Source: Escherichia coli O127:H6 str. E2348/69
Lineage (GTDB): Bacteria; Pseudomonadota; Gammaproteobacteria; Enterobacterales; Enterobacteriaceae
DNA: 64,000 nt
Assembly: GCF_000026545.1 (NCBI RefSeq)
Contig: NC_011601.1
Direction: 5' to 3' (one strand)
Shown: one piece after another, positions 33,301 through 49,001 of the stretch
Layout: each line of letters starts with the position of its first letter
Numbering within the stretch: position 1 is the first letter of the stretch
Translations under genes and position numbers: made by a program
Notes under the pieces: generated by a model
Databases searched by the model: none
What the model was told of the DNA's origin: nothing
Seen by the model: only the letters and a program-made list of their open reading frames with translations

Positions 33301-33309
33301 CTGAAGATT

Positions 33310-33377
33310 GCCGGGGTTATCCCCCGGCAATGTGTTGATGCCTGATGCGACGCTTGCCGCGTTTTATCAGGCCTACC
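33310..33377. repeat. gltP terminator hairpin followed by a REP element
   Basis: Hairpin GCCGGGGTTATCCCCCGGC, then GCCTGATGCGACGCTTGCCGCGTTTTATCAGGCCTAC. Confidence 0.8.
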
Positions 33378-34067
33378 TTAACCGTTAGTTAATTTTTCAA
33401 ACTCTTCACACCCGGTATCAAACCCTTCCATACAGCTCAGATTCAACCAGTGCAGCGCCTTTTGTTTGTTCTTCTCGATAAAACCCTCTTCACCGTTTAA
33501 GAACATCATTCCCGCCCAGTATTCGGAATAACCGGTTCGGGAAATCGCGGAGCTACGTTTGAAATACCAGGTTGCTTTGTCATCGTCGGCCTTAATGCCC
33601 ACGCCGTTGGCGTAAATCAAACCAAGCAGCATTTGGGCATCGACGGCAGAGTCGTTCTCCAGATCTTCCGAGGCGTTTTCTAACAGCGAAATCGCCTTTG
33701 GATAATCCGGTTTACCCGCTTGCGTATTTACCAGAATATGCGCCAGCGTTACTTCACCTTCTTTACTGCCCGCTTGCGCTGCTTTCTCGGCAAGCACTTT
33801 TGCTTGTGGATAGTCCAGACTGACCGGATTGGTGATTTTGATCTGCGCCAACAGCGCGCAGGCATCGGCATCACCGCTGTCGGCGGCTTTCTGTGCCCAA
33901 TATTCGGCTTTGCTCAAATCGCCGGAGCTAAACCAGCTGTCGGCAAGAAAATATTGTGCGCGTCGGTCTCCGGCCTCTGCTGCCTTTAAATACTGGCTGC
34001 CAGGCTCGGAGTCGTTCGCGTGGGCAAAGAATGTCAAAAATAACATCAAAGTGATAATTTTTTTCAT
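33378..34067 (-). CDS. yjcO: Sel1-repeat (TPR-like) secreted protein YjcO
   Basis: 229 aa from MKKIITLMLFLTFFAHA signal peptide; repeated Sel1-type motifs. Confidence 0.85.
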   Translation of the reverse strand: MKKIITLMLFLTFFAHANDSEPGSQYLKAAEAGDRRAQYFLADSWFSSGDLSKAEYWAQKAADSGDADACALLAQIKITNPVSLDYPQAKVLAEKAAQAGSKEGEVTLAHILVNTQAGKPDYPKAISLLENASEDLENDSAVDAQMLLGLIYANGVGIKADDDKATWYFKRSSAISRTGYSEYWAGMMFLNGEEGFIEKNKQKALHWLNLSCMEGFDTGCEEFEKLTNG

Positions 34068-34177
34068 TTTGATAATGAAGTTTGGTAGGGGAGAGACAGT
34101 ATAAAGTGTTCGGGTGGACAAAAAAACAACTGTAAAAAGACCTGAAAGCAGAATGAATTAATGCAATGTCAGGTTTT

Positions 34178-34882
34178 TTAATCCATCCGATGTTCCCCCT
34201 TTTCCATGGCGTCGCGATCAAAAAATCGCTGAATTTTTCCCTCGGACATCAATGCCGCTCGATCAGACATATGCGCGATGACATCGGCATCGTGACTGAC
34301 CAGCAGATATGTCATTTGGTGTTCCAGCTTAAGTTGATTCAACAAATTAAGGATTTCCGCTTGTACCGACATATCCAACGCCGAGGTGGGTTCATCCAGC
34401 AGAAGAAGTTGTGGTCGTAACAACAGGGCGCGAGCAATAACCACACGTTGCCGTTGACCACCGGAAAGCTGGTGTGGGTAGCGACGAGCGGCGTCGAAAG
34501 GCAAGCCAACCTGTTCCAGTGCAGTCTGGACGCGTTTTTCTATTTCTCTTTCGCCACGAATTTTGAGTGGTTCAGCCAGCGTTCGCCACAGAGTATGATT
34601 GGGATGCAACGAGGCATAGGGATCCTGAAACACCATTTGCACATTGCGGCGGAGATCGCCCTGAAAACGCATTCCTGGTTTGATGGTGTGCCCAAACAGT
34701 GACACCTGACCGTGCCAGTCGCGCTGTAATCCAGCAATTACGCGCAAAATCGTGGATTTTCCGCAGCCTGATTCGCCAATTAAACTAAATGTCTCTCCGG
34801 CATTAACCGAAAAACTGGCGGCAGAAACTGCGGTTTTCTCAGCAAAAGTCACCTGTAAGTGATTAATTTCAACAATCGTCAT
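34178..34882 (-). CDS. ABC transporter ATP-binding protein (DppF/OppF-like), accessory operon
   Basis: 234 aa; Walker A GESGCGKST, signature LSGGQRQR, Walker B LLLLDEPTSALD. Confidence 0.85.
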   Translation of the reverse strand: MTIVEINHLQVTFAEKTAVSAASFSVNAGETFSLIGESGCGKSTILRVIAGLQRDWHGQVSLFGHTIKPGMRFQGDLRRNVQMVFQDPYASLHPNHTLWRTLAEPLKIRGEREIEKRVQTALEQVGLPFDAARRYPHQLSGGQRQRVVIARALLLRPQLLLLDEPTSALDMSVQAEILNLLNQLKLEHQMTYLLVSHDADVIAHMSDRAALMSEGKIQRFFDRDAMEKGEHRMD

Positions 34883-35705
34883 GGTATTTCTCCGGCGTCA
34901 TTGCCGTCCTGTCCAGCGTCGGCAGCATCTGCCCGTAAGTTTGTGCATTTGGGCGGCAAGTCCACAGTGTGCGCGTGTAAGGATGCGTTGCTGTAGGTAG
35001 CGCAGCAGCGTGCATTTCATCCACCTTATTTCCCTGATACATCACCAGCACCCGATGGCAAAATTGGGCAACTAATGGCAGGTCGTGACTGATCAGCAAC
35101 ATTGCCATCTGACGTTGTTCACACTGGGTAACCAGCAGTTCCAGAATCTGATTACGCAGGCGCACATCCAGTGCTGATGTTGGCTCATCGGCAATCAATA
35201 CCCGGGGATCGTTGATGAGCGCAATTGCAATCATCACTCGCTGCCCCATGCCGCCAGAAAGTTCACGAGGATAGCTTTGCAGTACTCGCGTATTGAGGCC
35301 GACAGCCTGAATTGCGGTGTTTATTTTCTCTTCTTTCTCGCGGCGGTTCAGACGTTGATGGAGCGTAAGCGCCTCTTCCAGTTGCGCTTTTACTGTCTTT
35401 ACTGGATTAAGCGCGTAACGCGGATCTTGCAATACCATCGCGATATCGTTACCGCGCAACTGTTGCCATCCACGCGCGTTAAGGGTGAGTGCATCACGCC
35501 CCAGAATGTTAAGTGTGTCCGCGGTTACTACACCCGGTTTACGCACCAGCCCCATCAGGGCGCGGGCGGTCATGGACTTACCTGAACCCGACTCACCGAC
35601 CAGCGCCAGACGTTCATTGCCTAATGTAAAACTGACATTGTTGACGACCCGGGACTCCGGATAATCGACGCAGAGATTGTTGATACTAAGACGTGAGTCA
35701 GTCAT
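34869..35705 (-). CDS. ABC transporter ATP-binding protein (DppD/OppD-like), accessory operon
   Basis: About 278 aa from ATG 35705 (MTDSRLSINNL); Walker A GESGSGKS, signature LSGGMGQR; track start 35765 would overlap the upstream permease. Confidence 0.8.
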   Translation of the reverse strand: MTDSRLSINNLCVDYPESRVVNNVSFTLGNERLALVGESGSGKSMTARALMGLVRKPGVVTADTLNILGRDALTLNARGWQQLRGNDIAMVLQDPRYALNPVKTVKAQLEEALTLHQRLNRREKEEKINTAIQAVGLNTRVLQSYPRELSGGMGQRVMIAIALINDPRVLIADEPTSALDVRLRNQILELLVTQCEQRQMAMLLISHDLPLVAQFCHRVLVMYQGNKVDEMHAAALPTATHPYTRTLWTCRPNAQTYGQMLPTLDRTAMTPEKYHDDC

Positions 35706-36531
35706 GTTGAGGCTCCAGAACATCGCGCAAGCCATCACCCAGCAGATTAAAGGCCAGACTGGCAATTAAGATAATTGCGCCGGGAGCGGCGGCAATCCAC
35801 CATTGATCAAAAATGACCTGCATACCGTCGGCGATCATGGCTCCCCATTCCGCCATTGGCGGGCGAGCACCAAGCCCAAGAAAACCCAGGCCAGCAGCCG
35901 CCAGAATGATACCCGCTAAATCCAGCGCCAGACGGACAATGGCAGATGGCAGGCACAATGGCAAAATATGACCAGCCAGCAGACGCCTGCCGCGGATGCC
36001 CATCATTTCTGCGGCGGCAAGATAATCACTGTGTCGCAGACGTTGGATCTCACTCCGTGCCTGACGCGCATAAGCAGGCCAGGTGGTTAATGCCAGCGCC
36101 AGTGCGCCGTTAACCAGCCCCGGCCCCAGCATGGCAACAAAAGCAAAAGCCAGAATTAAACGCGGCATTGACATTACTACGTCAGTAAAACGCATCAGCA
36201 CGCGTTCCAGCCAGCCGCCGTAGTACCCGGCTAAAATGCCAATCAGCAGACCGACCGGGAGTGTAATGATTGTCACCAATGCCACCAGCCCCAGTGCCGG
36301 GCGGCTGCCGTAGATTAAACGTGAAAGTAGGTCTCGCCCGTAACTGTCAGTGCCGAGCCAGTGCTGACGACTCGGTGCTTGTAACCGCGCCGCCGCATCC
36401 TGCCAGTTAGGATCGTGAGGTGCCAGCCACGGCGCGAAGAGCGCAATTAGCATCAATAACAGGATAATTATCAACCCGCAAAACGCGGCGGGTGAATGGC
36501 GTAAACGGCGTAAAAAGAGAAACATCGGCAT
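35698..36531 (-). CDS. ABC transporter permease (DppC/OppC-like)
   Basis: 277 aa; six predicted TM helices; ends 2 nt after the next gene's start codon. Confidence 0.85.
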   Translation of the reverse strand: MPMFLFLRRLRHSPAAFCGLIIILLLMLIALFAPWLAPHDPNWQDAAARLQAPSRQHWLGTDSYGRDLLSRLIYGSRPALGLVALVTIITLPVGLLIGILAGYYGGWLERVLMRFTDVVMSMPRLILAFAFVAMLGPGLVNGALALALTTWPAYARQARSEIQRLRHSDYLAAAEMMGIRGRRLLAGHILPLCLPSAIVRLALDLAGIILAAAGLGFLGLGARPPMAEWGAMIADGMQVIFDQWWIAAAPGAIILIASLAFNLLGDGLRDVLEPQHD

Positions 36532-37580
36532 CAGCGTAACCTCGGATCGGTCAGCCGGACCAGCAGGTCGGTTAAGTTATTTATCAACACAAAGCAGACG
36601 CCAATCAGCAGCGTTCCTCCCATGATTGCTGTGGTATCACCCGCGAAGAGCGCTGTAGTGAGGTAGCGCCCAATACCTGGCCATGAAAAGACGGTTTCTG
36701 TCAGTACCGCGCCTTCCAGCATTGATGTATAGGCGAGGGCGATAACGGTGAGTAAGGTGCCGCGAATGTTGGGTAAAACATGACGTAGCAAAATTGTCAT
36801 CTCGCTGGCCCCTTTGGCGCGCGCCAGCAGAATATATTCTTTATTCATTTCGCCAAGACAGACGGAACGAGTCAGGCGCGTAATACTGGCGAGCGAGAAG
36901 TACGCCAGTAATAAAACCGGAAGTATCAAATGGTTGATTGCATTGGTAAATGCCTCGCGATCGCCAGAAAGCCACGTATCAATCAGCGCAAATCCGCTGC
37001 GGGGTTCTATGGTGAATTGATAAATATCATCCAGCCTGCCCGGCCCGGCACTCCATTGCAGTCTGGCGTAGAACAGCGCCAGCATCAGCAGACCAAGCCA
37101 AAAAACAGGGACGGAATTTCCCAGTAGAGTTAATGTTCGCACGGTGAAATCCAGCGGAGAACCGACATAACGGGCGCAAAGTACACCCGCAATGACGCCG
37201 ACAACAGCACCGACAATAAGCGCCAACGTTGCCAGTTCAATGGTCGCCGGGAATGCTGATAGCAAGTCCTGGAGTACCGGTTGCCCGGTGGAGCTGGCGA
37301 TGCCCAGATCGCCGTGTGCCAGATTCATCAGGTAATGCCAGAACTGGACGGCTAACGGTTGATCCAATCCTAACTGGTGGCGTACCTGATCATAGGTGGA
37401 CTGGCTGGCGTGATCGCCAACGATTTGTAGTACGCGATCGACCGGTGAGAGAGCCGAAAGCGCAAAGGTAATCAGCAGCAGGCCGAGTAGCGTCAGAGCA
37501 ACGGTAAACAGCCCTTGCAACAGCGCGAGCAGAGGGCGTTTGCCTCGCCATCTCGCGCGAGTGGAAAAAACGACAGACAT
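36531..37580 (-). CDS. ABC transporter permease (DppB/OppB-like)
   Basis: About 349 aa from ATG 37580 (GGAAAG RBS); in-frame ATG at 37673 would add 31 aa and lacks an RBS; start uncertain. Confidence 0.75.
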   Translation of the reverse strand: MSVVFSTRARWRGKRPLLALLQGLFTVALTLLGLLLITFALSALSPVDRVLQIVGDHASQSTYDQVRHQLGLDQPLAVQFWHYLMNLAHGDLGIASSTGQPVLQDLLSAFPATIELATLALIVGAVVGVIAGVLCARYVGSPLDFTVRTLTLLGNSVPVFWLGLLMLALFYARLQWSAGPGRLDDIYQFTIEPRSGFALIDTWLSGDREAFTNAINHLILPVLLLAYFSLASITRLTRSVCLGEMNKEYILLARAKGASEMTILLRHVLPNIRGTLLTVIALAYTSMLEGAVLTETVFSWPGIGRYLTTALFAGDTTAIMGGTLLIGVCFVLINNLTDLLVRLTDPRLR

Positions 37581-37679
37581 GATCTTTCCATACAGTGATA
37601 AATCAGCGGCTGGCCTGCAATACAGGCCAGCCCTGGTACCGCGCCCGGTAATATGGCTGGACGCGAGTTGCATACAGGG

Positions 37680-39248
37680 TTATTTGGTTACCTGATCAAA
37701 CCAGACCATATCGGCATTCAACCCTTGTTGATACCCCTGCACATTATCACGCATGACAATTTGCGTTTTGCCTTGATCAATAAAGACATACGGGGAACTA
37801 CGTTGTAGTTCTTGTTGCATTTTCTTATACAAATCAAGACGTTTAGCGCTATCAGGTTCAGCGATGGCCGCCAGCGTTTCTTTGTTCAGTTCCGGGATTT
37901 TCCAGCCGTTTAACCCGGCAACGGTGCTGGATTTGCCATCGTTATAGGCGAAAGAGCTGGCGTTGGAATGTGCGTCAAAATAATCAGGCAACCACATACG
38001 AATGGCCCCCTGATGCTGGTGGGCGCGAACGCGAGAGTAGACCTGACTCCCTGCGGCTGGCAGCAAATCAACTTTTACACCGCCCTGAGCAAAGCTGGCC
38101 TGAATTGACTGCGCGATGGTAATAAATGGCGGTTTATTTTCGACATCAAGCGTGAAGTGCGGGTCTTTGATTCCGGCTTTAGCGAGGATCTCTTTTGCTT
38201 TGGCTGGATTAAAGGTAAACGGTGTTTCTTCCAGTGCTCCAGGAAAGCCCACGGGCAGGAAACTTTGATGGGTAAAATATTGTCCTTTTAAGAGATTTTT
38301 GGTGATGCCGTCGTAATCGACCAACCAGCGAGCGGCCTCCCAGAACGCAGGATTACTCATCAGCGGGTTATCCTTGTTACCGGTATTGAAGGCCAGGTAG
38401 TTCTGTTCGGCGGAGGCAATGCTCATCACTTTTACGCCAGGTTTACCCTGTAATGCATCGATTTGATCGGCTCCCAGATCACGAGCCATATCAGCATCAC
38501 CTTGTTGGATCAGCAGGCGACGCGTTGCCGGATCGGGAACATTTTTGATGATGACGTTTTTCAGTTTCGGGGCGCCGGTTGGTGAGCTGGCGTTGGCTTC
38601 CATCACGATGGCCTGATGCGGTTGGTAAGTACGCATTTTAAACGCGCCGCTGCCAGCGGAATGCATCTTCAGCCATTCATTACCAAAGTCGTTATTTTTG
38701 GCGTTTGGCGCAACCAGCTTCTCGTCAACAATTGAGGCGATTGGTGTGGAGAGAATATTCAGTGCCAGCGCCGGGCTGACGTCGGCACTCCATTGCACCT
38801 GGACGGTATGGTCATCGATTTTCTTCAACTGGCTGGCGATATTTTCCGGCTGCCATCCCAGCACATTGAGAATAAACGCACCGGATTTATTCAGTGTGAC
38901 AGCCCGGACATAAGAGTAAATCACATCTTCCGGGCGTACCGGATTACCAGAGGCAAATTTCGCATCGCTTTTCAGTTTTATGGTTAGCGTTTTGGCTGCT
39001 GGGTCAGCCTGCCAACTTTCCGCCAGAATCGGAGTGATTTTCGTCGGATCATTACGGTCCGGTTGTACTACGCGTTGATACAGACTTGGTACAGTCTGAA
39101 TACTTGAGAGTTCATTAGCTTCTGCCGGGTCCAGACTCACAATATCATCCAGTCCCTGGGCTACAACCAACGTATTAGGCGGTGTAGCGGCAACGGTTGT
39201 GGCGGAAATTGTGCTTAAAACCAGTAAAGGTAATAGTTTTTTAATCAT
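37680..39248 (-). CDS. Periplasmic substrate-binding protein, family 5 (peptide/nickel/opine type)
   Basis: 522 aa; signal peptide MIKKLLPLLVLSTISATTVAA; size and composition typical of DppA/OppA-like proteins; clearly not NikA-like at the N-terminus. Confidence 0.8.
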   Translation of the reverse strand: MIKKLLPLLVLSTISATTVAATPPNTLVVAQGLDDIVSLDPAEANELSSIQTVPSLYQRVVQPDRNDPTKITPILAESWQADPAAKTLTIKLKSDAKFASGNPVRPEDVIYSYVRAVTLNKSGAFILNVLGWQPENIASQLKKIDDHTVQVQWSADVSPALALNILSTPIASIVDEKLVAPNAKNNDFGNEWLKMHSAGSGAFKMRTYQPHQAIVMEANASSPTGAPKLKNVIIKNVPDPATRRLLIQQGDADMARDLGADQIDALQGKPGVKVMSIASAEQNYLAFNTGNKDNPLMSNPAFWEAARWLVDYDGITKNLLKGQYFTHQSFLPVGFPGALEETPFTFNPAKAKEILAKAGIKDPHFTLDVENKPPFITIAQSIQASFAQGGVKVDLLPAAGSQVYSRVRAHQHQGAIRMWLPDYFDAHSNASSFAYNDGKSSTVAGLNGWKIPELNKETLAAIAEPDSAKRLDLYKKMQQELQRSSPYVFIDQGKTQIVMRDNVQGYQQGLNADMVWFDQVTK

Positions 39249-39533
39249 ATGCTTCCCAATCCCTAAAATTACTTTGAGGTTATTAATATGCTATCAGACG
39301 GGGGTTCGCTGCATTAATCGCGCCAGAATATCCCGTTAATAGAACGAGTTAAACGGTCGATGATTTCTCACCTTACCGAAATTTTGTTTATCAAATGTAA
39401 AGTATTATTACGTTAGGCCGCGATGAGAATTGAGTAAAGATAATTCTCATTTGCAATCGTGACAGGAATAGAAGAACAACCGAGAAGACGTCGCTAATAA
39501 CCAGAATGGGCTGGTTTGACTGCGCAGGTATGT

Positions 39534-39569
39534 ATAAAAAAATCCGGAAACAGAGAGTCGTTTCCGGAT
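39534..39569 (-). terminator. Rho-independent terminator of fdhF
   Basis: Hairpin ATCCGGAAAC-AGAGAGTC-GTTTCCGGAT followed on the minus strand by a U-run. Confidence 0.65.
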
Positions 39570-39622
39570 TGATACAAAGGCGTTGGGTAATATCGCCGCT
39601 TTTAACGTGAGTTTACGCGGTA

Positions 39623-41770
39623 TTACGCCAGTGCCGCTTCGCGCAGGCGAGTTTTCAACTTGTTGTACTCGTCAATCACGTACTGCTCGGCGGCGCGCTG
39701 ATCGGCGATCGGCTCGACGCGCACGGCGCAGTATTTGTATTCCGGCGTTTTCGTAATCGGGCTTAAGTTTTCGGTAACCAGCTCGTTACAGGCACCAATC
39801 CACCACTGGTAGGTCATGTAAATCGCCCCTTTGTTCGGACGATCGCTGACCTGCGCACGGGTGATAATTTTGCCTTTACGCGAGTGCACCCAAACCAATG
39901 CCTCATCTTCAATACCCAGACGTTTGGCGTCTTCGGTATTGATTTGTGCGTAGCCAGGTTCATCAGCCAGCGCCGCCAGTGCCGCACAGTTACCGGTCAT
40001 CGAACGGCAAGAGTAGTGACCAACTTCACGCACCGTTGACAGTACCATCGGGTACTCGTCGGTGAGTTTGTCGATTGGCGCGACCCAGTCGCAGGTGAAG
40101 AACTGCGCCAGACCGTTCGGGGTATCAAACTTCTCTTTAAACAGATAAGAAGTCCCCTGATCGGCATCTGAAGTATCCCGGCAAGGCCACTGAATGAAGC
40201 CCAGTTCGCCCATTTTTTCGTAAGTCGCACCGTAGAAATCCGGGCACAGATGACGCAACTCATCCCAGATCTCCTGGGTGTTGTTGTAGTGCATCGGATA
40301 ACCCATACGGGTGGCGATTTCACTGATAATCTGCCAGTCCGTTTTCAGATCCCATTTCGGTTCAACCGCTTTGAAGAAACGCTGGAAGCCACGGTCAGCC
40401 GCAGTAAACACGCCTTCATGCTCGCCCCACGACGTTGACGGTAAAATAACATCCGCCGCCGACGCGGTTTTGGTCATAAAGATGTCCTGAACGATGACCA
40501 GTTCCAGATCTTCAAAGGCTTTACGTACTGCCGACAGCTCCGCGTCAGTTTGCAGCGGATCTTCGCCCATAATGTACGCGGCACGCACTTCGCCATGCGC
40601 TGCGCGGTGCGGCAGCTCGCTGATGCGATAGCCGGTATGAGCAGGCAGGCTTTCCACGCCCCAGGCTTTGGCGAATTTCTCGCGGTTAGCCGGATCTTTC
40701 ACGTACTGGTATCCCGGATACGTATCCGGCAGCGCGCCCATATCGCAGGCACCCTGCACGTTGTTCTGACCACGAACCGGGTTTACACCCGCATGCGGCT
40801 TACCGAGGTTACCAGTCAGCATCGCGAGGCTGGTCAGAGAACGCACGGTTTCCACGCCCTGGTAGAACTGGGTTACACCCATGCCCCACAGGATGGCGGC
40901 GCTTTTCGCCTGGGCATACATCCGCGCCGCCTGACGAATCTCACTGGCGCTGACGCCGGTGATATCTTCAACCGACTCCGGCGTGTAGCCTTCAACGATT
41001 TTACGATACTCTTCAAAGCCTTCTGTACGGGAAGCGACGAAAGCTTTGTCGTACAGGTTTTCTTCAATAATGACATGGCCCATCGCATTCAACAGCGCGA
41101 TGTTCGAGCCGTTTTTCAGTGCAATGTGCATGTCAGCAATGCGCGCGGTTTCAATTTTGCGCGGATCGCAGACGATAATTTTCGCCCCGTTACGTTTAGC
41201 GTTAATTACGTGATTCGCCACGATTGGGTGGGAATCCGCCGGGTTGTACCCGAAAACGAACACTAAATCGGTATTATCAATTTCGTTAATAGCATTGCTC
41301 ATTGCGCCATTACCGACCGATTGGTGCAGACCTGCAACCGATGGGCCGTGTCAGACACGAGCGCAGCAGTCAACGTTATTGGTACCAATAACGGCGCGCG
41401 CAAATTTTTGCATTACATAGTTGGTTTCGTTACCCGTACCACGCGAGGAGCCGGTCGTCTGGATGGCATCCGGACCGTACTTCTCTTTGATGGCGCTCAG
41501 GCGCTCGGCAACGTAATTCAGTGCCTCATCCCAGGAAACAGGTTCGAGTTTGCCGCCACGCTGGCGACGGATCATGGGGGTTTTCAGGCGCGGGGTCAGG
41601 ATCTGGGTATCGTTAATGAAATCCCAGCCATAATAACCCTTCAGACACAGGGTACCCTGGTTGGTTTTCCCCTGCGCTGCCTCCGCCCGGACGATTTTGC
41701 CGTTATCGACGACCAGGTTGATTTTGCAACCTGATGCGCAATAGGGGCAAACCGTGACGACTTTTTTCAT
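39623..41770 (-). CDS. fdhF: Formate dehydrogenase H (FdhF), selenocysteine-containing molybdoenzyme
   Basis: 715 codons with in-frame TGA at 41351-41353 (codon 140, selenocysteine); the two track ORFs 41351-41770 and 39623-41302 are one gene; N-terminal Fe-S cysteines CPYCASGC. Confidence 0.95.
41305..41350 (-). other. SECIS mRNA hairpin directing selenocysteine insertion at the fdhF UGA
   Basis: Minus-strand sequence immediately 3' of the UGA reads CACGGCCCATCGGTTGCAGGTCTGCACCAATCGGTCGG, a stem-loop matching the fdhF SECIS as I remember it. Confidence 0.8.
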
Positions 41771-46807: not shown

Positions 46808-47015
46808 ATTAAATACATCCTGTCTGCTGCGAACAATATCTGTAGTGAATATCAATATCCATTGAAGGCGTCAGTATGGCTATTTTCTCGATGAATAAAA
46901 ATAGCTTTATTCAGCCACCACATTCATAACTTATATATTTTATGTATTAATTTGCTGTATATATTTTTAAAATAAATGTTTTTGGGGGCTTCAGCGCCCC
47001 CAAAAGCGAGTGACA

Positions 47016-49001
47016 TTAATTTGGGGTTACGATATTCACCCACAAATCGAAATTATCCAGACAGGCGATAATTTCTTCCAGTTTCGCGCCATTGCCAATA
47101 ATTTTGGCTTTCTTCGCTTTCACCAGATCGGCCATTTTTGCCTGTCCGGTCAGCACGGCGTGCAGATCTTCACGGCTGATGTAGAAAGAGGCGTCAGCTT
47201 GCGGTTGCAGTGTTTTACGGTAGTTAAGCACGCTATTGTTGAGTGAGAGGTTCAGGTTATCGTTGTCAGAGAGATTGAAGTTCAGGCTGATGGATTTGCC
47301 CGCGGCTTTCTCACTGTCCAGACGAACAGCCATGTAATCAAACAGCATCTCGACAGTCATACTCTTGATAGTGTCAGGAGAGGCGGTGCTGGCGTGTTCG
47401 ATTTTCTTCACGCCCTCACGAAGTTCTTTCGCTCCCGTCAGGTAGAAGCCGCGCCAGGTCGCTGATTCGGCCTGATAACCCAGTTGTTCGAAGGTATCGG
47501 CCTGTAGGTTTTTCGCCACCTGGTCTCCCGGATTGGCAGCAATCACCTGTTTCAGCAGTTCAGAGGCCCAGCGGTAGTCGCCCTGGTTATAGGCTTCACG
47601 CGCCAGATTGATAGCATGTGCGGAACCTCCCAGCGCTTTGACATAACGTTTACCCATATCGACCTGGCCATACGGATTCAGGTTTGCTGGGTTACCGTCG
47701 TAGTAGCCGAGGTAAAAGTTATATACCGCGCGAGCGTTATGACTGACGGAGCCATAATAGCCATGGCTGGCCCAGTTTTTATCCAGCGTTTCCGGCAGAT
47801 GAATCATGTTGCCGATTTCATTCATGGTGTAACCCTGGTTCGCCAGGTGCAGGGTTTGGTCGTGAATATACCTGATGGTGTCGCGATATTTTCCAATATA
47901 ATCATTGATATGCTGATTACCCCAGACCGGCCAGGTGTGCGGCATAAACAGTACTTCTGCTTGTGATCCCCACTTATCCAGCGTTTCGTTTAGGTAATTG
48001 GTCCACTTCGCGGTATCGCGGGTTTTCGCGCCACGCAGGGTGTAGAAGTTATGCAGGGTATGGGTGCTGTTTTCCGCTGTGCACAGGGCTTTCAACGCCG
48101 GAATATAGAGGTGCATTTCAGACGGCGCTTCGCTGCCTGGAGCCATCAGGAATTCGAAATCCAGCCCGTCGATATTGAGTTTCTCACCTGTCTTGGTGAT
48201 AGATCGCGTCGGCGCGATAATTGTCGGGTCGCCGGTAGTAAGCGTAACACCCAGCCCGTTGCCGATATCTCCCTGTGCATTATGCGGGAGTAGCAGGCCG
48301 TAAGAGTAAAATGCACGGCGACTCATGATATTACCCGCCAGCACGTTTTCACTGATGGCTTCGTCCATAAAGCCTGCCGGGGCGATGATCTGCACTTTGC
48401 CTGCTTTTACATCGGCTTCTGAGATAATACCTTTTACGCCGCCATAGTGGTCAGTGTGGCTGTGGGTGTAGATAACGGCCACAATCGGTTTTTGTGGGCG
48501 GTGTTTGAAATAGAGATTAAGGCTGGCTTTTGCTGCATTTGGCGTCACCAGCGGGTCAATGACGATGATGCCCGTATCACCTTCAATGAAGGTGATGTTC
48601 GAGATATCCTGGCTGCGCACCTGATACATGCGGTCGGTGACTTTAAACAGACCGGAGATGCCGTTTATCTGCGACTGACGCCACAGGCTGGGGTTTACGG
48701 TTTCCGGCGCAGCGGCATTAATATCAAATTTGTAATCGTCCGCGCGGTAGTAAACTTTACCGTTCGCATCACGCAGAATACCTTCATCCAGCAGCGGAGC
48801 GATAAATCCACGCTGCGCATCGTCAAAATCCTGACGATCGCTAAACGGTAATGATTTGGCGTAATTCTGATTAACCTGTTGGGTATATTGAGTGGCGGCT
48901 TTCGCTTCATCTGTTGCGTAAGCGGTATTTATCATCATGCCGCTGGCGGCAGTGAACGCAATAACAATCCTGCTCAAACGGAATAACCGAGAGTTATTCA
49001 T
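47016..49001 (-). CDS. yjcS: Metallo-beta-lactamase-fold alkyl/aryl sulfatase YjcS
   Basis: About 661 aa; signal peptide; HSHTDHYGG metal-binding motif. Confidence 0.9.

Follow-up and report, generated by a model that had tools for sequence, protein, structure and literature searches.

This report concerns a five-gene operon located between yjcO and fdhF in Escherichia coli O127:H6 str. E2348/69, within a window of 64,000 nucleotides of contig NC_011601.1. We consider it quite probable that two statements hold together: the operon would encode a functional, self-contained type-I importer of the PepT family of ATP-binding cassette (ABC) transporters, and it would owe its position to one old insertion at the fdhF terminator, the allele found in E. 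coli phylogroup B2 and in Escherichia albertii being the derived one. The operon already carries a generic annotation in RefSeq and adds an uncharacterised accessory member to a very familiar class of transporters. A full-text literature search found nothing on an importer operon between fdhF and yjcO, and the only paper rich in mentions of yjcO describes a yjcO-lysU deletion fusion from the long-term evolution experiment, which is unrelated to the operon.

The gene coordinates (Table 1) are those of the listing of open reading frames (ORFs) and of the RefSeq annotation of the E2348/69 record. The five genes are co-directional on the minus strand (34178-39248), all of them apparently intact, and encode a binding protein, two permeases and two ATPases. 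A first-pass annotation of this DNA had described just such a complete operon of the Dpp/Opp/Nik family, and the ORFs, the annotation and the domain matches agree with it. The adjacency of yjcO and fdhF in K-12, which it had also claimed, was confirmed, since the two genes are separated there by a gap of 93 bp in which the operon is absent. Its description of the gene junctions as tightly coupled or overlapping holds for permease B/permease C (an overlap of 1 nt, TGATG), permease C/ATPase D (8 nt) and ATPase D/ATPase E (14 nt), but not for the junction between the binding-protein gene and the gene of permease B, where a 99-nt spacer with a strong stem-loop is found. The ORF of permease B can be extended beyond its annotated start to 37673.

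The gene set shows what is expected of the PepT family (TC 3.A.1.5): an SBP_bac_5 protein with a signal peptide, permeases of the DppB/OppB and DppC/OppC type and ATPases with intact motifs. The binding protein matches SBP_bac_5 (Pfam PF00496, E=1.4e-68) and begins, as read from its sequence, with a hydrophobic signal peptide (MIKKLLPLLVLSTISATTVAA/TPP) without a lipobox cysteine. Its AlphaFold2 (AF2) model has a mean predicted local distance difference test (pLDDT) score of 95.5, with low values only in the first ~20 residues, and exhibits the family-5 fold, with template-modelling (TM) scores of 0.75-0.83 to DppA, GsiB and NikA in Foldseek. The two permeases match NCBIfam models with E-values of 1e-71 and 1e-83, and their E. 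albertii orthologues, which are 94-97% identical to the B2 proteins, possess the Pfam domains BPD_transp_1_N and BPD_transp_1 (permease B) and OppC_N and BPD_transp_1 (permease C). In both ATPases the Walker A, signature and Walker B motifs are intact (GESGSGKS, LSGGM and VLIADE in ATPase D; GESGCGKS, LSGGQ and LLLLDE in ATPase E). Pfam detects ABC_tran alone in them and not the C-terminal oligo_HPY domain, of which ATPase D retains just an HPYT remnant; neighbouring opp-type ATPases at a locus of another genus do show this domain. Judged by domain content, the ATPases are of the short, Nik-like type. In the mechanism that we propose, the periplasmic binding protein would capture a small ligand and dock on a heterodimer of the two six-helix permeases B and C, and a heterodimer of the two separate short ATPases D and E would power the translocation.

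The comparison with E. albertii shows that these genes have been maintained. The operon DNA of B2 and of E. albertii is 89-94% identical, and the five genes differ by 0.25-0.44 synonymous substitutions per site (dS) at a ratio of nonsynonymous to synonymous substitutions (dN/dS) of 0.03-0.11 in all five. The dS values are like those of the flanking genes gltP (0.34), yjcO (0.28) and nrfF (0.32). Taken together, dN/dS and dS indicate that both copies are old and under purifying selection.

The first-pass annotation had named a displaced copy of a known core operon as the finding that would speak against its description. This does not apply, since every NCBIfam equivalog model stays far below its cut-off, and a copy of nik, dpp, gsi, ddp, opp, sap or cnt is therefore rejected. 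The best match of the binding protein is NikA with 109.6 bits (cut-off 393, TIGR02294), followed by DppA (107.3 bits, cut-off 1005), GsiB (105, 594), SapA (92, 560), CntA (84, 800) and OppA (49, 947). Likewise, no NCBIfam model reached its cut-off with the permeases and ATPases: permease B scores 241 bits with both Opp2B and DppB, and permease C 279 bits with Opp2C (cut-off 300), 278 with DdpC (434) and 276 with NikC (358). The dipeptide importer DppABCDF of E. coli shares the architecture and the fold with the operon and DppA is the best sequence match among the solved structures, but the identity is only 23%, and the ATPases of DppABCDF and OppABCDF carry the oligo_HPY domain that is absent here. 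GbpA and GsiB (YliB), the binding proteins of the GsiABCD/GbpA systems, are among the top structural matches, yet they are only 21-22% identical, and GsiA is a fused double ATPase, whose 623-position model is matched in two separate halves; the operon has two ATPase genes instead. With the D,D-dipeptide importer DdpABCDF, the operon has in common that permease C scores about as high for DdpC as for the nickel permeases; however, no gene for the dipeptidase ddpX adjoins the operon and the binding protein gives no match at the level of Ddp. The staphylopine-metal importer CntABCDF also has a family-5 binding protein, and there are weak matches to CntA, CntC, CntD and CntF, but metallophore synthesis genes were not found nearby in the genera examined.

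The module is not restricted to Escherichia. Orthologues of the binding protein with 72-87% identity occur across the Enterobacterales, and 80 loci came from a scan of species-representative genomes, with all five genes of the module present at almost every one of them; about 85 loci entered the clustering by gene neighbourhood. Overall, the module occupies six chromosomal contexts in ~75 Enterobacterales species: fdhF-yjcO in Escherichia, ycjF-tyrR (psp/tyrR) in Kluyvera, the bet/entD-ybdK region in Enterobacter, Klebsiella, Raoultella, Kosakonia, Lelliottia and relatives, proP-patA (aer/proP/patA) in Buttiauxella and Cedecea, argI-pyrB/nrdD in Yersinia and Serratia, and a place beside opp (opp/marC) in Proteus and Morganella. 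Its neighbours are lineage-specific core genes, and no enzyme or regulator gene consistently accompanies it in the six contexts. The sole recurrent neighbour is a gene for a RimL-like acetyltransferase, at 24 loci of one group of genera. The context of homologues at 56% and 47% identity was uninformative. A neighbour-joining tree of the five concatenated proteins, calculated without support values, is broadly taxonomic and places Escherichia beside Kluyvera (86-87% identity).

Some loci depart from the complete module. In Serratia, the full operon occupies the argI-pyrBI site at three loci (L078, L079, L092), and an orphan binding-protein gene stands alone between argI and pyrBI at others (L004-L006, L084, L087, L090, L093). 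A metagenome-assembled genome of the Enterobacterales (L091, 8001-11300) has two tandem binding-protein paralogues ahead of the permease genes. The orthologue from Yersinia pestis Antiqua (AFDB A0A0H2YBK1, 73% identity) is a truncated binding protein of 390 aa, which suggests decay of the importer in Y. pestis.

For the substrate, we aligned the binding protein with NikA and DppA of K-12 and with 11 members of the subfamily. The aspartate D408 of mature DppA, which contacts the amino terminus of the peptide, aligns with D422 of the binding protein, and this aspartate is kept in 11/11 aligned members, down to ~37-40% identity. In mature NikA, Ni-(His)2 is held by R97, R137 and H416; their counterparts in the binding protein are S122, T168 and G438, so that the residues for a nickel chelate are absent; the three positions are non-basic and not histidine in the 11 subfamily members, too. 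Since the amino-terminus aspartate is conserved, the nickel ligands are missing and the module occurs in many genomes without a dedicated catabolic or regulatory partner, we tentatively propose that the substrate is not nickel but a small molecule whose amino group is free, either a peptide or a derivative of amino acids, a proposal to which we give slightly less than an even chance. Such a compound could be handled by general cytoplasmic peptidases, and the absence of a conserved enzyme or regulator indicates that a dedicated catabolism seems unneeded.

Several observations weigh against this assignment. The loop that contains R355 of DppA, the arginine for the peptide carboxylate, is deleted in the binding protein. 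The best solved structures are only 20-23% identical (PDB sequences, Foldseek), and they span binders of dipeptides, glutathione, murein peptides, opines, signalling molecules and nickel without any preference. The relatives in the AlphaFold database (AFDB) are all unnamed (Foldseek, AFDB50), and a search of 1.8 billion cluster representatives gave generic family-5 relatives only. The relatives with a structure or an annotation are all too distant to name the substrate.

It is conceivable, but unlikely, that the operon imports a non-peptide organic compound such as an opine, an Amadori product, a sugar derivative or a signalling molecule. The binding proteins MoaA (mannopinic acid), AgaA (agropinic acid), AapF (HEHEAA) and AccA are structural neighbours at roughly equal distance, and both the missing carboxylate-arginine loop and the acetyltransferase gene beside the operon in other genera would fit such a role. 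The conserved aspartate does not, and the lack of any catabolic enzyme or dedicated regulator common to the six contexts would be unusual for opine or sugar systems.

A second importer for nickel or a metal chelate, which would serve formate hydrogenlyase/hydrogenase from its place beside fdhF, is improbable. The E. coli nickel importer NikABCDE has the same five genes in the same order, with a family-5 binding protein, two permeases and two separate short ATPases without the oligo_HPY domain; NikA is the top NCBIfam match of the binding protein, and permease C reaches 279 bits against the 300 required by the nickel permease model. However, the models NikA to NikE all stay under their cut-offs, the binding protein and NikA agree in only 23% of their residues, and the Ni-(His)2 contacts of NikA are conserved neither in it nor in the aligned subfamily. 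No nikR is annotated nearby, the matches to the NikR operator GTATGA-N16-TCATAC all have 3 mismatches and are no more frequent than chance predicts (19 versus 17.5 expected), and a Fur box was not found within 3 mismatches. Since only Escherichia has the module beside fdhF and the other genera carry it at unrelated sites, this neighbourhood looks accidental.

The second half of our account, a single old insertion at the fdhF terminator, is based on the comparison of the site between E. coli strains, E. albertii and two outgroups. In the alignment, ~5.48 kb of E2348/69 stand in place of 27 bp of K-12, and the most conservative alignment places the bounds of the insert at 34129-39617. In Citrobacter and Salmonella, fdhF and yjcO are adjacent and the site is empty. 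The terminator hairpin of fdhF (ACAGCCTCC...GGAGGCTG-T7) and the spacer that follows it are common to K-12, O157, Citrobacter and Salmonella and absent from E2348/69, where the ~15-nt core of this hairpin is missing just left of the insert (34129/34130). The insert brings its own fdhF terminator, which takes the place of the ancestral hairpin. In E. albertii, the operon occupies this same site and its junction sequences are those of B2; besides the insert, the two have in common that the hairpin core is lost (ACAG/TTG-T7) and that the 68-bp spacer next to yjcO carries eight derived substitutions. As the outgroups possess an empty site and the K-12-type hairpin, the empty allele is ancestral and the operon allele derived. 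The polarity implied by the word inserted in the first-pass annotation was thus correct, with the refinement that the event is ancient and shared with E. albertii. That annotation had also seen neither mobility genes nor flanking direct repeats, and we came to the same result: no integrase, transposase or other mobility gene is annotated, and the two junctions have no direct or inverted repeat of at least 7 bp in common. The target was the fdhF terminator and not a tRNA. From these alignments, the operon allele appears to have arisen once, in an event without repeats or mobility genes. In a search for the donor DNA, no match to the insert's non-coding ends turned up in the other genera.

An alternative history, in which Escherichia had the operon at this site from the start and K-12 and the other non-B2 strains deleted it, has little probability. 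E. albertii is the deepest species of the genus, and its identical junctions and core-like divergence from B2 would be expected if the operon had always been there. However, K-12, O157 and further strains with an empty site keep the hairpin and spacer of the Citrobacter/Salmonella type, and the operon-bearing alleles share the loss of this hairpin and the derived changes in the spacer. A deletion cannot rebuild hairpin and spacer, so the empty allele does not descend from the insert-bearing one.

Within E. coli, the operon segment is present in 1043/5426 complete genomes (19%). Among the 1044 matching records, 1042 show at least 99% identity, one 95-99% and one 90-95%, and all 1044 cover at least 80% of the segment. 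CFT073, Nissle 1917, O25b:H4-ST131 and E2348/69 are among the listed carriers, and from the identity of these strains we infer that the carriers belong to phylogroup B2. The non-carrier genomes have the 93-bp spacer of the K-12 type. Two of the 1044 operon places lie on sequences whose records call them plasmids, and the operon occurs twice in one genome. A divergent copy that might have marked an intermediate lineage of E. coli, that of strain 14EC007 (NZ_CP024131.1), was rejected as such: its operon region shares 99.6% identity with E. albertii as against 91.5% with B2, and the genome is probably that of an E. albertii under the wrong species label. Its ATPase E gene is frameshifted. In a few E. 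coli strains, a small deletion across the end of the operon and the start of yjcO (window ~33900-34882) has produced an in-frame fusion of 351 aa (protein P0308, 3 member sequences), which joins residues 1-181 of ATPase E to YjcO from about residue 59. The restriction to 19% of the genomes and such fused or frameshifted ATPases could suggest a recently acquired islet or a decaying, functionless remnant, but this is very improbable in view of a G+C content like that of the surroundings (51.2% in the insert versus 52.2% in the window), the missing mobility genes and repeats, a dS of ~0.3 to the E. albertii copy at low dN/dS and the coverage of the segment in all E. coli records.

With regard to the spread of the derived allele, the DNA on the left of the insert is informative. 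In the 68-bp spacer, 16 sites group B2 with E. albertii, 8 of them shared-derived relative to Citrobacter/Salmonella, and only 1 groups B2 with K-12. The signal for E. albertii fades ~200-270 bp into yjcO, and farther on B2 groups with K-12; on the other side, it ends at the fdhF stop codon. The operon allele of B2 forms a haplotype block with its own history, and the most economical reading would be an exchange of alleles by homologous recombination through the conserved flanks in fdhF and yjcO, K-12 representing the ancestral empty site. Against a simple recent transfer stands the species-level divergence between B2 and E. albertii, which is hard to square with it. A recent donor within today's E. 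albertii lineage would have left the two copies more alike; an exchange at an early time, a donor lineage that has since been lost or a polymorphism of long standing would fit. Apart from E. albertii, the species-representative scan listed no member of the genus, but this silence is weak evidence, because the E. coli copy was also not returned.

Table 1. Features of the fdhF-yjcO region of E2348/69 (positions in the window)
Feature	Position	Strand	Evidence or remark
yjcO, left flank	33378-34067		
Left flank travelling with the insert: 68-bp spacer and ~first 200-270 bp of yjcO	33800..34140	-	33800 edge approximate
Complete insert of 5,477 bp, comprising the new fdhF terminator, the promoter region, the five genes and the operon end	34141..39617	.	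alignments to K-12, E. albertii, Citrobacter, Salmonella
Weak hairpin and T-rich run past the last gene, at the end of the inserted DNA	34141..34173	-	fold, -10 kcal/mol
ATPase E	34178..34882	-	234 aa; Pfam ABC_tran
ATPase D	34869..35705	-	278 aa; Pfam ABC_tran
Permease C (DppC/NikC-like)	35698..36531	-	277 aa; NCBIfam Opp2C, DdpC, NikC
Permease B (DppB/NikB-like)	36531..37580	-	349 aa as annotated; NCBIfam Opp2B, DppB
Intercistronic stem-loop GGCTGGCCTG-TAT-TGCAGGCCAGCC in the binding-protein/permease B spacer	37608..37632	-	terminator-like scan, fold
Periplasmic substrate-binding protein, family 5 (SBP_bac_5)	37680..39248	-	522 aa; Pfam, NCBIfam, AF2 model
Promoter/operator block	39392..39457	-	conservation, pattern across genera
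fdhF terminator of the insert-bearing allele, AATCCGGAAACG...GTTTCCGGATT + T7	39541..39570	-	terminator scan, fold
fdhF, right flank	39623-41770		in-frame TGA for selenocysteine

The non-coding parts of the insert allow some predictions on the expression of the operon. Between B2 and E. albertii, a block of 66 nt upstream of the binding-protein gene is 100% identical, and the remaining spacer differs by ~14%. The block contains a putative -35 element (TTTACT, 39433-39438) and a putative -10 element (TAACGT, 39410-39415), and a perfect inverted repeat, ATGAGAATT-N10-AATTCTCAT (39423-39450), overlaps the former. In other genera, the pattern [ACT]CTTT-N20/21-TA[ACT][CT][GT]T is found upstream of the binding-protein gene at 56/59 loci; the T, the A and the final T, which never vary in it, are characteristic of -10 hexamers, with a weak -35 element 16-18 nt farther upstream. 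Transcription may therefore start at a weak sigma-70 promoter with TAACGT as its -10 element, and the conserved inverted repeat over the -35 element lets one expect a regulator. It counts against this promoter that a consensus promoter scan gave nothing on the operon strand; if the promoter is real, the empty scan indicates that it is weak and probably dependent on a regulator. Candidates for sigma-54 and CRP sites that had been noticed by eye were dropped because of their spacing. The leader of ~160 nt between the putative promoter and the ATG of the binding-protein gene holds no RNA element known to Rfam.

In Enterobacteriaceae other than Escherichia (L021-L099), a T-N11-A dyad (TTATGC-N7-GCATAA or ATA-N9-TAT) is located ~64 nt upstream of the putative transcription start and ~110-130 nt upstream of the start of the binding-protein gene. 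Its position resembles that of a classical activator site of the LysR type (e.g. Nac-like), and no regulator gene adjoins the operon at the loci that bear it. The Escherichia copy lacks this dyad and has the inverted repeat over the -35 element instead.

The stem-loop between the binding-protein gene and the gene of permease B has a G+C-rich stem of 11 bp and a folding energy of -26.9 kcal/mol. It is likely an mRNA-stabilising or attenuating element, which would set the binding-protein gene apart from the four translationally coupled genes downstream, and the binding protein would probably be made in excess. The weak hairpin past the last gene is a possible operon terminator.

Two other segments of the window vary between strains. 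The spacer between gltP and yjcO (33301-33377) comprises 77 bp in E2348/69 and about 530 bp in K-12, and it holds an element similar to repetitive extragenic palindromic (REP) sequences (Rfam naRNA4, 44.5 bits, under the gathering score). Longer matches that might have been operon remnants in empty-site strains (H12, H19) belong to the length variation of this spacer and not to the fdhF-yjcO site. Window positions 47000-48500, which correspond to yjcS (alkyl sulfatase) in K-12, are only 82-85% identical to K-12, versus 95-98% in the neighbouring segments, and represent a strongly divergent allele or a recombined segment.

The operon does not represent a new kind of system; it is an ABC transporter with a generic annotation, and the evolutionary pattern of its site is a small puzzle. 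One could assume that it stands both for an uncharacterised orthologous group of the Enterobacterales with a specificity not yet described for family 5 and for an old presence/absence allele that crosses the boundary between E. coli B2 and E. albertii, although we regard this combination as rather doubtful. An allele that is shared across species at species-level divergence would imply either that the polymorphism is long-lived or that the allele entered by introgression from a lineage now lost; selection specific to the niche of B2 may have preserved it. The locus is in any case a clean case of an operon-sized insertion that bears no signature of a mobile element and behaves as an allele of a core site. 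Phylogroup B2 comprises the main extraintestinal pathogens as well as successful colonisers of the gut, the probiotic strain Nissle 1917 included, and an importer that is present in about a fifth of the complete E. coli genomes and absent from K-12 could contribute to the niche of this phylogroup.

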